In this document: positions 8,323 to 12,609 of the stretch, piece by piece
Numbering within the stretch: position 1 is the first letter of the stretch
How the letters are laid out: every line of letters begins with the position of its first letter
IMG/VR virus record: IMGVR_UViG_3300034122_001045
Length of the DNA: 51,194 bases
Reading direction: 5' to 3' (one strand)
Origin: a virus
Taxonomy: Duplodnaviria; Heunggongvirae; Uroviricota; Caudoviricetes
Position numbers and translations under genes: made by a program
Notes under the pieces: model-generated
Told to the model about the DNA's origin: nothing
Seen by the model: the letters and a program-made list of their open reading frames with translations, nothing else
The model's database searches: none

Positions 8323-8476
8323 AATTCTGTTTTCACATATGACTGTAAATGGGAGTACTATGGTTCGAATCCATAGGTGGTCTGGCTGACCGTGATTTAC
8401 AATGCCAAAAGGGCCAGCGTGCCCCTGAGCGCTCGAAAGTTCGAAGCTTTCACAGTCATAGTTGAAAACAGAAGTT
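8323..8476 (+). ncRNA. Structured ncRNA, family B member 1
   Basis: Nested stems TTCTGTTTTCA/TGAAAACAGAA, TATGACTGT/ACAGTCATA, GTAAAT/ATTTAC; internal T-arm TATGG-TTCGAAT-CCATA. Confidence 0.7.
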
Positions 8477-8477
8477 T

Positions 8478-8555
8478 TGCGGGGTAGACTGGAGGTGGTT
8501 CCAGCACGGTCTCATAAGCCGAAGACGTAGGTTCGATTCCTACCCACCGCAACCA
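8478..8555 (+). tRNA. tRNA-Met(CAT), initiator-like
   Basis: CGGT-CTCATAA-GCCG; acceptor stem with one bulged A; ACCA. Confidence 0.85.
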
Positions 8556-8557
8556 AG

Positions 8558-8645
8558 TTTAGACTGTAGAATTAATCACCTCTTGTGAAGGTGTCCCTGA
8601 TCCGTCATCGCCGGCAGGTCAAAGCTGCAAACAGCCCAGTCTAAA
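8558..8645 (+). ncRNA. Structured ncRNA (multiway junction)
   Basis: TTTAGACTG/CAGTCTAAA closing stem with three internal hairpins. Confidence 0.55.
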
Positions 8646-8652
8646 ACAAATC

Positions 8653-8686
8653 GGGGGATTAGCTCAATTGGTTAGAGTTGCCCGCT
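8653..8686 (+). pseudogene. 5' half of a tRNA truncated at the anticodon loop
   Basis: GGGGGAT-TA-GCTC-AATTGGTTA-GAGT-T-GCCCG-CT, then the endonuclease cassette; no matching 3' half found. Confidence 0.7.
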
Positions 8687-8690
8687 ATGA

Positions 8691-8724
8691 AATATCTTTT
8701 TGTATAAATAGACAAAAGGAGATT
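8691..8724 (+). promoter_or_regulatory. Late promoter inside an RBS-occluding hairpin
   Basis: AATATCTTTTTGT-ataaatag-ACAAAAGGAGATT; TATAAATA at 8703-8710. Confidence 0.7.
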
Positions 8725-8727
8725 ATA

Positions 8728-9291
8728 ATGCTTTACACAATATACCAAATAACTAATGAGCTTAACGGAAAAATATACATAGGAAAGCATCAAACTACCA
8801 ATCTCAATGATAGATATTATGGCTCTGGAAAGTTCATAAGGTCTGCCATGAAGAAATATGGTAAAGAGAACTTTACTAAAGAGATACTATTTGTCTTCGA
8901 TACTGAAGAAGAAATGAATACAAAAGAGAAAGAGTTGATAACAGAAGAGTTTGTATCCAGAAAAGATACTTACAACGCCGGAATTGGCGGAGAAGGAGGA
9001 CCTCATTTCAAAGGGAAAAAGCACGGCTCTTACATGAAAGAAATAAGTAGCTCTGTAGATCATCGTAAAAAAATAAGTGAAGGTCTTAAAGAACACTATA
9101 AAGATAACGCTGCTTGGAACAAAGGTCAAACAATATCATCAAATCAAAAAGATAAAATATCAAAAACAATGAGTGGAAGAAAACTTTCAGAAGAAACAAA
9201 AAATAAGATAAAAGAAGCGCGGGCAAGACAAACATTTTCAGAAGAAACAAAAAAGAAAATGACTGAAAGCGCAAGAAATAGAAAGAAATAA
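8728..9291 (+). CDS. GIY-YIG homing endonuclease with NUMOD3-like repeats (Seg-like)
   Basis: TIYQITNELNGKIYIGKH; C-terminal SEETKKKM repeats; GGAG RBS. Confidence 0.9.
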   Translation: MLYTIYQITNELNGKIYIGKHQTTNLNDRYYGSGKFIRSAMKKYGKENFTKEILFVFDTEEEMNTKEKELITEEFVSRKDTYNAGIGGEGGPHFKGKKHGSYMKEISSSVDHRKKISEGLKEHYKDNAAWNKGQTISSNQKDKISKTMSGRKLSEETKNKIKEARARQTFSEETKKKMTESARNRKK

Positions 9292-9298
9292 TTTTAGT

Positions 9299-9375
9299 GG
9301 GCTTGTCGACTAATTGGTTAAGTCACAATCCTCATAAGATTGCTGATCGCGGTTCGAGTCCGTGCGGGCCTACCA
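9299..9375 (+). tRNA. tRNA(CAT), elongator Met or Ile2
   Basis: CAATC-CTCATAA-GATTG; complete cloverleaf; ACCA. Confidence 0.88.
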
Positions 9376-9461
9376 AAATTATTTCTTGGTCTTATTATAA
9401 TCGGTACTGCTGGGATAGGGCAGCTAAGTCGGCACGAGGAGGTGCTAGAGCCAAAAACATT

Positions 9462-9537
9462 GCTTCCGTAGCTCAGTGGATAGAGCAACCGCCTTCTAAG
9501 CGGTCGGTCGAGGGTTCGAATCCTTCCGGGAGCGCCA
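9462..9537 (+). tRNA. tRNA-Arg(TCT)
   Basis: ACCGC-CTTCTAA-GCGGT; GCCA. Confidence 0.95.
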
Positions 9538-9560
9538 TACTTTCTATTGAAAGGTTTCCT

Positions 9561-10226
9561 ATGTTAACTCATATTCAAAATATGCAATGGGTTGGCGCTC
9601 TTAGTCTTGAAGACGCAGACGTACTAGCTCAGAAGTCAAAGACTGCTCTAAAGATATTAGAATTTGGCCCTGGTGGCTCGACAATGATATTTCTTCAGAG
9701 TATTGATTCTAACGCATCAGTTACTTGCGTTGAGACTCGACAGCAATGGATTGAAGAACTACAGAATAGATTAGATCTTATTGAACATAAGTCTAATAAT
9801 TATGAGTTCTATCGGTATAAAGATTTCATGAATAAAGAAATTAGAGAAGAAAGCTTTGATCTCATATTTGTTGATGGTGAGAAAACATTTAGAGAAGACT
9901 TTGCGCGTAAGACATGGTATCTGTTAAAGAACGGCGGAGAGATGATGTTTCACGACACAAAGAGAATATCATATATTGATAGTATGATGAACGTAATTCG
10001 CAATAAACTTTTTCAAATCGAAAGCGTTCAATTTAATATTAAAGCATCAAACGGAGAGAATTCAAACATTTCTTCGATTAAGAAAACAGCTAGAATTGAA
10101 CCACCAAACAACTTACAGAGTATCGAACAAGAAAGAGAACTGTGGACTTTTGGTGGTATCAGACAACATAACTATACGATAGACAAAGGTCTGTTTGTAT
10201 ATAGAAATACAGAAGCGCAAAAATAA
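9561..10226 (+). CDS. Class I SAM-dependent methyltransferase
   Basis: LEFGPGGST, FDLIFVDG, FHD motifs; start moved downstream of the tRNAs. Confidence 0.75.
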   Translation: MLTHIQNMQWVGALSLEDADVLAQKSKTALKILEFGPGGSTMIFLQSIDSNASVTCVETRQQWIEELQNRLDLIEHKSNNYEFYRYKDFMNKEIREESFDLIFVDGEKTFREDFARKTWYLLKNGGEMMFHDTKRISYIDSMMNVIRNKLFQIESVQFNIKASNGENSNISSIKKTARIEPPNNLQSIEQERELWTFGGIRQHNYTIDKGLFVYRNTEAQK

Positions 10227-10227
10227 A

Positions 10228-10315
10228 GGAAGCGTGGGCGAGAGGTTTATGCCTGCAGTCTTGAAAACTGCCGAACGGAAACGTTCCGTGAGTTCGAATC
10301 TCACCGCTTCCGCCA
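10228..10315 (+). tRNA. tRNA-Ser(TGA)
   Basis: GCAGT-CTTGAAA-ACTGC, long variable arm, GCCA. Confidence 0.95.
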
Positions 10316-10318
10316 TGA

Positions 10319-11366: not shown

Positions 11367-11367
11367 T

Positions 11368-11455
11368 GGATCGTGGGCAGGACGGTAATGCAGCAGATTG
11401 CTAATCTGTAGAACGAGCAATCGTTCACTGGGTTCGACTCCCAGACGGTCCGCCA
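11368..11455 (+). tRNA. tRNA-Ser(GCT)
   Basis: GCAGA-TTGCTAA-TCTGT; long variable arm; GCCA. Confidence 0.94.
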
Positions 11456-11459
11456 ATAC

Positions 11460-11548
11460 GGGTGGTAATCCTAGTTGGGACTAGGGCTCGCCTGGAAAGC
11501 GATGCGCAGGCGCAAGTCTGTCAGATTCGATTTCTGTGCCACCCGCCA
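11460..11548 (+). tRNA. tRNA-Ser(GGA)
   Basis: TCGC-CTGGAAA-GCGA; long variable arm; GCCA. Confidence 0.88.
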
Positions 11549-11560
11549 AAAAAATAATGG

Positions 11561-11589
11561 TTGACATTCACATAGAATCAGTTTATATT
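11561..11589 (+). promoter_or_regulatory. Early promoter with GAATCAG motif
   Basis: TTGACA-ttcacata-GAATCAG-tt-TATATT. Confidence 0.8.
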
Positions 11590-11620
11590 GATAATGTAAG
11601 TAACGAAAGGAAACAACGTT

Positions 11621-11785
11621 ATGCTTTACATTCGTGATATCATGGAGCTTCTTCAAGTTGATAAAGAAGTCGCGACTAAAGTGTTTGCTTGGATGGATCT
11701 TGACCTGAGCGAATGCACTAGGGAAGATTTCGATGCTGATGCACGTTATGTGTATGCCCAAATTAAAAATGGTACATACAAATAA
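11621..11785 (+). CDS. Hypothetical early protein (54 aa)
   Basis: AAGGA RBS; MLYIRDIMELLQVDKEVATKVFAW... Confidence 0.65.
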   Translation: MLYIRDIMELLQVDKEVATKVFAWMDLDLSECTREDFDADARYVYAQIKNGTYK

Positions 11786-11788
11786 CTA

Positions 11789-11817
11789 TTGACATTCATG
11801 TCGAATCAGTGTATTCT
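11789..11817 (+). promoter_or_regulatory. Early promoter with GAATCAG motif
   Basis: TTGACA-ttcatgtc-GAATCAG-tg-TATTCT. Confidence 0.8.
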
Positions 11818-11846
11818 AATAATGTAAGGAACGAAAGGAAACCTTG

Positions 11847-12044
11847 ATGAATATCGCTAGCTCCAAACTTGCTGAGATTGCCTACGGTATGTCCGAGATG
11901 GCTCGCACTCACAAGAACGACGTGATTGCAAACAACCTCGCTCGCGTTTCGGAAAAGGTCGCCGTCCAAGGTGCAAACTGGGCAGGTAAACCGCTCGATG
12001 AAACTGATATGATGTTGGTTCGTTACTACCTCGCTAACAAATAA
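11847..12044 (+). CDS. Hypothetical early protein
   Basis: AAGGA RBS; has its own promoter. Confidence 0.65.
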   Translation: MNIASSKLAEIAYGMSEMARTHKNDVIANNLARVSEKVAVQGANWAGKPLDETDMMLVRYYLANK

Positions 12045-12047
12045 TAG

Positions 12048-12076
12048 TTGACATTTCTGTCGAATCAGTGTAGATT
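12048..12076 (+). promoter_or_regulatory. Early promoter with GAATCAG motif
   Basis: TTGACA-tttctgtc-GAATCAG-tg-TAGATT. Confidence 0.8.
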
Positions 12077-12102
12077 GAGAATATACAGAAGAGGAACTGA
12101 TC

Positions 12103-12501
12103 ATGTATACCTTCGATGAAACGATCGTCTCCGACCTCCACAAGGATGCTTACGGCTATCGCCCAGATGCATACTTCTGGGAAGAGTGGACTCAGTGCGG
12201 CGACGACACTCGTCAAGCCATGTGGGATAACCTGCTTGTAGAACTTGAGCAAGCGCGTGAGCGGGAAGCTCAAGAACAGATCGCTGCGATCAATGCTTTC
12301 GAGCTTGAGATTGCAAACGCTCTTGATGTTGGTGCTCGTTCGCGTGAAGACGCAGTTCGTTGGATCGTCCAAGGTTTGGAGCTTAGCGATATCGACATGA
12401 TGTACGGTGGCAGCTACATCTGCTTCCTTAAGGGTCTGCCTTATCGCATGGCAGCAATGTTTGACAACGCGATCAACTTCTTTCGTGCTGAAGTTGTATA
12501 A
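12103..12501 (+). CDS. Hypothetical early protein
   Basis: GAGGA RBS; MYTFDETIVSDLHKDAYGYRP. Confidence 0.7.
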   Translation: MYTFDETIVSDLHKDAYGYRPDAYFWEEWTQCGDDTRQAMWDNLLVELEQAREREAQEQIAAINAFELEIANALDVGARSREDAVRWIVQGLELSDIDMMYGGSYICFLKGLPYRMAAMFDNAINFFRAEVV

Positions 12502-12504
12502 ATA
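12497..12504 (+). promoter_or_regulatory. T4-type late promoter
   Basis: TATAAATA just upstream of the ncRNA at 12520. Confidence 0.65.
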
Positions 12505-12519
12505 GTATTGTAACGAGTG

Positions 12520-12609
12520 CTCTGTTTCCCGCTATATCCCGTAAATGAGGGTCGGCCACCCAAACTTTACTGAAACACGCAATGCGCTGGGGTATAGCGG
12601 AAAACAGAG
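12520..12609 (+). ncRNA. Structured ncRNA, family B member 2
   Basis: 21-bp basal stem with one mismatch; GTAAA/TTTAC helix; GGGT-CGGCC-ACCC hairpin. Confidence 0.7.

Follow-up and report, generated by a model that had tools for sequence, protein, structure and literature searches.

Family B hairpins in a T4-type phage

We analyzed a window of 51,194 nucleotides, the minus strand of G000:C1:17465-68658, from the virus record IMGVR_UViG_3300034122_001045 (IMG/VR, 217,966 bp, rated complete), focusing on a family of long RNA hairpins, family B, that stand in front of transfer RNA (tRNA) genes. The source is an uncultured phage of the T4 type. It encodes topoisomerase II subunits of the gp39/gp52 kind and, at the protein level, is distantly related to Methylophilales phage Melnitz and Pelagibacter phage HTVC008M. 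Pelagimyophage identity is unlikely, since pelagimyophages have genomes of about 150 kb with about 33% GC and few tRNAs. In the window, ARAGORN called 28 tRNAs and a permuted transfer-messenger RNA. Two copies of family B lie in the window, and a third just outside it. The features at the three sites are listed below; bit scores for the copies are those of the covariance model R1, X and X'' denote the 5' and 3' arms of the hairpin, and rrn stands for ribosomal RNA (rRNA) operons.

-114 to -9 (G000:C1:68668-68773, minus strand of the record): copy 3, just outside the window; 45.0 bits
1-65, + strand: tRNA after copy 3, its 5' end lost at the window edge
8237-8265, + strand: sigma-70-like (early) promoter TTGACA-17-TATACT, 11 of 12 matches, preceding copy 1
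8290-8305, + strand: rrn-type boxA GCTCTTTGACAATTTA, 15 of 16 bases as in the E. coli rrnH leader (CTCTTTAACAATTTA)
8311-8319, + strand: decoy strand X' (GGAAACAGA), predicted to pair with the 5' arm X in the nascent transcript
8326-8472, + strand: copy 1; 69.3 bits, folding and helix pairing
8326-8335 with 8463-8472, + strand: outer helix of copy 1, by pairing
8338-8346 with 8452-8460, + strand: inner helix of copy 1, by pairing; a 2x2 internal loop (CA/GT) lies between outer and inner helix
8358-8376, + strand: perfect T-arm of copy 1, CTATGG-TTCGAAT-CCATAG
8379-8391, + strand: hairpin GGTC-TGGCT-GACC of copy 1, with GC hairpins next to it
8479-8551, + strand: first tRNA of the operon, anticodon CAT; Rfam tRNA 32.7 bits; 6 nt past the helix of copy 1
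12497-12504, + strand: T4-type late promoter motif TATAAATA, 16 nt 5' of copy 2
12520-12609, + strand: copy 2; 43.2 bits and folding
12615-12690, + strand: tRNA-Asn, 5 nt past copy 2

In copy 1, the basal helix joins TCTGTTTTCA-CA-TATGACTGT with ACAGTCATA-GT-TGAAAACAGA and encloses an insert of 105 nt, T-arm included, in which a GTAAAT (8345-8350) : ATTTAC (8396-8401) stem surrounds the T-arm and the GGTC-TGGCT-GACC hairpin. The predicted fold has -54.9 kcal/mol (z -5.2), and none of 200 shuffled sequences folded as well. The same was true of copy 2 (-40.1 kcal/mol, z -5.5, 0/200), where the basal helix (CTCTGTTTCCCGCTATATCCC with GGGGTATAGCGGAAAACAGAG) holds an insert of 46 nt with a GTAAA/TTTAC stem around GGGT-CGGCC-ACCC, followed by CGC-AAT-GCG. 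Copy 3 was found by a whole-genome hairpin scan. It has the same helix ends as copies 1 and 2 and a T-arm, and is followed by TTTTG and the tRNA; its leader comprises its own promoter, a hairpin, a boxA (GTTCTTTGAAAATTTA), a small hairpin and X'. A MAFFT alignment of copies 1 and 2 alone was structurally meaningless.

The copies themselves are not tRNAs, as judged by the Rfam tRNA model RF00005, which matched neither 8326-8472 nor 12520-12609. ARAGORN places a tRNA-Glu of 87 nt at 8297-8383, overlapping boxA, X' and the 5' half of copy 1. This call has no Rfam tRNA support and is probably false, triggered by the T-arm.

Family B modules head tRNA operons. They stand in front of tRNA arrays, always in the same orientation. 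For 16 of 23 members in alignment A2 (see below), the 5' end of a tRNA lies 2-11 nt past the helix, often after GTTT(T/A); in L012a, it is the promoter of the next module that follows. The tRNA with anticodon CAT after copy 1 is also found after the orthologs in L263, L267 and L240b, and a promoter of the TTGACA...GAATCAG...TATA type also precedes members in those relatives for which upstream sequence was displayed. Motifs of the TATAAATA type, as in front of copy 2, are T4 late promoters; the window contains 10, all on the + strand, compared with 3.25 expected when both strands are counted.

Distribution of the family

Relatives of the phage were sampled as 80 contigs, each with a gene for a gp52 relative (67-85% identity). 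The closest relatives (L010-L012) and two more distant ones (L017 and L033) have elements whose arms are the same. Further members came from two pattern scans of IMG/VR, one with the tail of boxA and the 5' arm as its anchor and one with the decoy strand X' and the 5' arm X (pattern without boxA). L331 (genome G045) was excluded from the analysis. In all, about 45 distinct members were gathered from uncultured phage contigs, and 23 of them, in alignment A2, were used to build model R1.

Model R1 found exactly three matches in the 218-kb genome, namely the three copies. Four large related contigs gave two matches apiece (two of these contigs have terminal repeats and are complete), and in every case the + strand scored above the - strand. 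No match was obtained in 151 sampled Alphaproteobacteria, in the T4 tRNA region (filters off), in the T7 leader or in E. coli rrnH. Among 50,697 GenBank phage records, blastn detected no counterpart, and megablast matches were to tRNAs only. No Rfam family matched copies 1 and 2, either at the gathering score or at E<=10. The absence from Rfam and from cultured phages explains why annotation pipelines have overlooked the family.

Conserved basal helix

The signature of the family is a basal helix of about 20 bp, of the form 5' TCTRTTTTCA-CA-(7-9 bp) against (7-9 bp)-GY-TGAAAAYAGA. It is composed of an outer helix of 10 bp (TCTRTTTTCA with TGAAAAYAGA), a 2x2 internal loop (CA against GT or GC, unpaired in 19/23 members and Watson-Crick in 4/23), and an inner helix of 7-9 bp, which changes freely in sequence while pairing is preserved. 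Over the 19-21 pairs, 87% of the cells of alignment A2 were paired, compared with 37-46% when the partner strand was slid. Compensatory changes occurred at 14 of 21 pairs, and none of 500 shuffles equalled the observed values. Non-canonical pairs were strongly biased, with 23 G.U and 2 A.C, and we therefore conclude that selection acts on the helix as an RNA, transcribed in the same direction as the tRNAs. The same G.U excess, taken with the fixed orientation, rules out a DNA-level palindrome or a miniature inverted-repeat transposable element.

These results bear on an initial annotation of the window, which had described copies 1 and 2 as an unnamed paralogous family of structured RNAs. The parts it listed (basal helix, inner stem, hairpins and the T-arm of copy 1) are all present in the sequence, as are the early promoter before copy 1 (8237-8265), the late promoter before copy 2 (12497-12504) and the tRNAs starting at 8479 and 12615. 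The proposal of a conserved family is borne out by the fold statistics (z -5.2 and -5.5), the third copy and the members in relatives, its lack of a name by the empty Rfam screen at E<=10, and the suggested covariance-model search of phage sequences did return homologs (three here, two in each of four relatives). The sequence core that was taken as the family signature, GTAAATG..TTTAC with a YGGCY loop, did not hold up: it is common only to copies 1 and 2 and the ortholog L251a, GTAAATG..TTTAC occurs once in the window against a chance expectation of 26%, and what the family conserves is the basal helix. The initial annotation did not include the rrn-type boxA, the decoy strand that pairs with the 5' arm, or the exchange of inserts between close relatives, all of which are described next.

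boxA leader

In almost all members, a promoter lies upstream and is followed, often after a hairpin, by boxA and then by the short decoy strand. The boxA thus comes soon after the promoter, in the leader of an RNA operon that is not translated. Its family form, GCTCTTTGAMAATTTA, is of the rrn type; such a sequence is present at copies 1 and 3, not at copy 2. The longer stretch GCTCTTTGA(C/A)AATTTA recurs upstream of copies 1 and 3 and of almost every relative. It has G in the eighth position, and this same variant, G[CT]TCTTTGA[CA]A, was found 149-284 nt 5' of 16S in 14/29 sampled alphaproteobacterial rrn loci. For gamma-proteobacteria, the consensus GYTCTTTAANA has been published (PMC5725501).

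The association with boxA was also seen in members ascertained by other means. A boxA-like motif was located 5' of all three members that were detected by the covariance model alone, and of about 27 of the 28 members from the X'+X scan, which makes no use of boxA. Among these 28 real members, 18 match GYT[CA]TTTGA[AC]A, and the remaining ones have close variants (GCTCATTGAAAA, GCTCTTTCAAAA, GCTCTTTTACAA) or a boxA cut by the end of the contig. A loose version of the motif occurs only seven times in the 218-kb genome, both strands included, and two of the seven are the leaders of copies 1 and 3.

Many leaders have a GGGA...TCCC hairpin immediately 5' of boxA, which is the boxB-boxA order of rrn operons; in E. 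coli rrnH, a GCGAC...GTCGC hairpin ends two bases 5' of boxA. The short-leader type, represented by copy 1, has no hairpin in this position. Many leaders also have a small, well-conserved hairpin 3' of boxA, GTCC-TAGCGTAAGCGATGAT-GGAC and variants.

As a separate observation, the hairpin between boxA and X' can have an asymmetric loop that is strongly conserved (GTC-TTAGGGGTAACCCGATGATA-GAC; the variants retain TAG...CGATGAT). It was seen in the leader of copy 3 (about -160 to -125 in window coordinates) and in L230, L247, L249, L271, L282, L287, L292, L293 and L342-L357. The GAUGA beside its stem is reminiscent of a kink-turn or of a site for protein binding.

The phage encodes no NusB gene. 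In the literature, we found no paper linking boxA to T4-like phages, cyanophages or pelagiphages, or to phage tRNA operons, and text matches for the boxA variant strings were primers only.

Decoy strand and alternative pairing

The decoy strand X' (consensus GGAAAYAGA, 9 nt) is complementary to X and lies 4-11 bases 5' of it. In the predicted fold of the nascent leader (8272-8345), X' and X form a hairpin; in that of the full transcript, X pairs with X'' and not with X'. One position of the pairing is variable. A scan that allowed all four combinations at this position of X' and X returned C-G 24 times, T-A 12 times, T.G three times and C.A never. In complete members, the X'/X/X'' triplets were C/G/C (19), T/A/T (6), C/G/T (3) and T/G/C (1), with no mismatch. 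These counts are inflated by related sequences, but mismatch classes are clearly missing, and both pairings are therefore under selection.

Variable inserts

The RNA enclosed by the helix differs between members, and its length ranges from 30 to 105 nt. At the orthologous sites of copy 1 and L267a, the leader is 95% and the start of the tRNA 94% identical, but the inserts (105 and 52 nt, respectively) are unalignable, with 39% identity. The same kind of replacement was observed for L263a, L240b and L233a. Conversely, similar inserts can occur at different sites: L017a and L249a, two loci of one genome, have inserts that are 78% identical behind different leaders.

Comparison with known systems

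In rrn operons, boxA recruits Nus factors, and boxC is a nearly invariant strand located in the 5' half of a leader-trailer helix that is long and covaries (PMC10250234). This helix arises once the trailer has emerged, RNase III cuts it, and tRNAs follow the trailer in the same transcript (PMC10250234). Family B shares with the rrn leader (the site of the rrn antitermination complex, rrnTAC, with NusA/B/E/G, SuhB and S4, and of RNase III processing) the order promoter-hairpin-boxA, an essentially identical boxA in an untranslated operon, a near-invariant 5' strand that is part of a long helix and has a partner strand with Watson-Crick/wobble exchanges, and a trailer strand followed by a tRNA. 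As in a leader-trailer helix, the stem is longer than 17 bp, joins a strand just after boxA to a distal one and is kept by covariation. There are also differences. The helix of family B encloses 30-105 nt of variable RNA and not a 1.5-kb rRNA, its 5' arm is preceded by the extra decoy strand X', and the arm (UCUGUUUUCA) has only UCUGU.U in common with E. coli boxC (UCUGUGUGGG). Because an enclosed rRNA is missing and the inserts vary, we regard family B as a mimic or derivative of the rrn leader-trailer helix and not as a member of that class.

Among phages, the T7 early leader has a boxA (CGCTCTTTAACAA) downstream of promoters A1-A3, just before a hairpin-forming stretch that we take to be the R0.3 RNase III site. 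Here too, a lytic phage has an rrn-type boxA before a hairpin at the head of a unit transcribed by host polymerase. However, the T7 unit is protein-coding and its hairpin is not homologous (no match to model R1), whereas family B heads a tRNA array and its helix holds an insert and comes with a decoy strand. In the lambda nut site, too, a phage transcript has a hairpin about 10 nt past boxA. Since the X':X hairpin lacks a conserved loop, it is unlikely to be a protein-specific boxB, and no N-like protein was identified.

The initial annotation had compared the copies with the two stable RNAs of T4, rnaC and rnaD (species 1 and 2), which are structured non-tRNA RNAs in the tRNA cluster of a T4-type phage. 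This comparison stands in part. When T4 rnaC is folded, a T-arm lies at the 3' strand of the closing helix, as it does in six family B members, and the rnaC-like architecture is limited to the T-arm types. Homology is not supported, as there is no similarity in sequence or to model R1, and the T4 RNAs sit at the end of their cluster, without boxA or a long basal helix. YrlA and other bacterial Y RNAs (RF02553) also combine a long terminal stem with a tRNA-like T-arm module. Family B elements are nevertheless not Y RNAs: the YrlA model scored only the neighbouring tRNAs, the phage has no Ro/TROVE gene, and most members lack a T-arm.

A probable rrn-like leader in front of phage tRNA arrays

Together, the above observations favor family B being a cis-acting, rrn-like antitermination leader combined with a processing helix of the leader-trailer type, to which we assign a probability of roughly 55%. 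As the module is built like a miniature rRNA-operon leader, the phage probably borrows the host machinery for rRNA transcription and processing. The parts would act in their order along the transcript, which is a promoter of the host type, often a hairpin placed like boxB, boxA, often a small conserved hairpin, X', X, the insert, X'' and usually a tRNA. In the mechanism that we infer from this anatomy, boxA on the nascent RNA would load host NusB/NusE and other Nus factors, as at rrn operons, and the ribosome-free tRNA array would then be transcribed fast and without Rho termination. X would at first be kept in the short X':X hairpin. On emergence of X'', the longer X:X'' helix (about 20 bp, with the 2x2 internal loop) would displace it, mirroring the formation of the rrn leader-trailer helix. 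This helix would be the cut site of a double-strand-specific nuclease of the RNase III type, which would split leader and insert from the first tRNA. The phage has no RNase III gene, so that the host enzyme would be needed.

Several findings weigh against this interpretation. Copy 2, with its late promoter, lacks both boxA and X', even though its ortholog L251a has a boxA; the same two parts are missing from L033b, and L017a has no clear boxA. The helix must therefore have some role without boxA. The outer helix is conserved in sequence as well as in structure, which RNase III alone would not demand, though the three-way pairing could. The inserts are not uniformly free to vary, as that of copy 2 is 93% identical to that of L251a despite a different inner helix, and the insert type of L017a/L249a keeps six compensatory pairs among five sequences. 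T-arms are in large excess, with 13 in 9/26 members against 0.06 expected from shuffles and none in the reverse complement. Missing boxA and X' at copy 2, T-arm enrichment and conserved inserts do not fit a purely cis-acting role. In addition, no bacterial rrn leader with family B arms was found in the samples searched. The boxA plus 5' arm pattern gave at least 120 chance matches in bacterial genomes, and among the matches listed none had 16S or the 3' arm downstream, while BLAST of the leader against 401 Alphaproteobacteria returned weak A-rich matches only. Capture from a host rrn operon was thus not demonstrated by the boxA+arm scan, BLAST or model R1.

The T-arm excess and the compensatory pairs in one insert type suggest that the insert may be a real product. 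In that case, the hairpin with its insert would be a small, stable, trans-acting RNA freed from the operon, and the rrn-like stem would only excise and protect it. Members with T-arms would resemble tRNAs (compare T4 species 1 and YrlA) and might occupy a tRNA-binding enzyme or a defence nuclease of the host. Six of the T-arms abut the 3' strand of the helix in a tRNA-like manner (gap 0-1 nt), the placement also seen in folded T4 rnaC, and the conservation between the inserts of copy 2 and L251a, as well as the existence of copy 2 without boxA, point the same way. Against a stable product stand the outright replacement of the insert between close relatives at one site (copy 1 and L267a), the 17 of 26 members without a T-arm, the failure of the YrlA model on the elements together with the missing Ro/TROVE gene, and the fact that basal helix and leader are common to all members and the insert is not. 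We consider this alternative less probable than the cis-acting leader, and the same degree of doubt applies to its extended form, in which the helix might serve as a cassette holder from which host processing frees small RNAs swapped among phages, several of them T-arm tRNA look-alikes. A cis-acting leader and a stable RNA are compatible with each other.

Other explanations are less likely still. The mutually exclusive pairings with their three-way covariation and the predicted fold switch could reflect an attenuator-like regulatory switch, in which X':X versus X:X'' sets polymerase read-through into the tRNAs, perhaps with a factor binding the outer helix. About half of the members do have a short U run (GUUUU) after the helix. 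This is unlikely, however: the terminator scan called none at the helix, the stem, with an A/U-rich base and only 3-4 U after it, would be a weak intrinsic terminator, X':X is so much less stable than the long helix that the outcome looks fixed and not switchable, and the variability of the inserts leaves no conserved, ligand-like pocket. A selfish or neutral repeat, that is, a palindromic cassette that recombination has carried from one tRNA-cluster site to another and that has no function for the phage, would explain the two to three copies per genome, the duplication of the whole module (promoter, boxA and hairpin) in L012 relative to this genome, and the shifting of inserts between sites (as in L017a and L249a). 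It is quite improbable, as the strand-specific G.U excess (23 versus 2) and compensatory changes point to selection on an RNA helix and not on DNA ends, the element has a constant orientation and stands in front of tRNA arrays, the element is retained across phages whose topoisomerases are only 67-85% identical, and no transposase is associated with it. The initial annotation had thought of a protein sponge, a 6S-like RNA polymerase decoy or a double-stranded RNA decoy. A double-stranded stem of 20 bp is present, and the RNA would arise in both early and late phases, but the Rfam search found no match at E<=10, 6S included, and the folds show a multi-branched insert and no central bubble resembling an open promoter. 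The stem is merely about 20 bp and the context favors operon processing, which makes the two decoy functions highly improbable; the protein sponge is likewise unsupported.

Other elements near the tRNA genes

The region 5' of the copy 1 promoter (8032-8229) contains another promoter, overlapped by TATAAATA. It also has two hairpins, one with a perfect stem of 19 bp (8156-8203) and one resembling a terminator (8199-8222). Downstream of copy 1, at 8653-9291, the 5' half of a tRNA (GGGGGATTAGCTCAATTGGTTAGAGTTGCCCGCT) stops within the anticodon loop and continues into a gene for a GIY-YIG/NUMOD3 homing endonuclease (8728-9291). L293 has an intact counterpart of this half-tRNA, with anticodon CAT. 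No 3' half was seen after the homing-endonuclease gene, and the locus is either a disrupted tRNA or an intron with a 3' exon that was not found.

In L287 (883-1260) and L292 (1582-1865), about 300-380 nt of conserved sequence (GCTTCAAAGATAGAGTCGGTATCAAT...) come before a run of tRNAs; this stretch between the helix and the first tRNA had no Rfam match. Two further hairpin families were encountered. Family C (10958-11069 in the window, about 19886-19996 in L017 and about 7550-7656 in L033) has a basal stem of 28-30 bp, ...GGATACACTGT with ACAGTGTATC..., and a conserved GATACA.TG/CA.TGTATC core, and is found directly 5' of tRNA genes in two distant relatives. Family A is a paralogous pair (10318-10385 and 12868-12930, AGGATCGGTTCAGCAAAC...CTTAGCGGACAAAACGATCCT) that precedes tRNA-Ala and a tRNA with anticodon CUA, respectively; family A is also conserved in L012, at 80-92% identity. 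A tRNA with anticodon CTA in the DNA (12936-13013, labelled Pyl by ARAGORN) is conserved in L012 and is a possible amber suppressor.

Implications

Three things are new: the hairpin family, its swappable inserts, and a decoy strand that takes part in three-way covariation. If the helix is a cassette holder, it would be a platform for fast-changing decoy RNAs directed against tRNA enzymes or the host's tRNA-directed defences; the two unexplained stable RNAs of T4 would thereby gain a wider family and a testable origin. The swappable, T-arm-rich inserts are candidates for the same unexplained class as the T4 species 1 and 2 RNAs. As for an rrn-like leader, imitation of the rRNA operon by these phages would include the leader-trailer helix as well as a transient decoy pairing, and the module of about 200 nt, compared with a 16S precursor, could be a tractable model for how the rrn antitermination complex aids the pairing of distant strands. 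For the question of how lytic phages transcribe long ribosome-free tRNA arrays without Rho termination, a boxA leader would be a concrete and testable answer.

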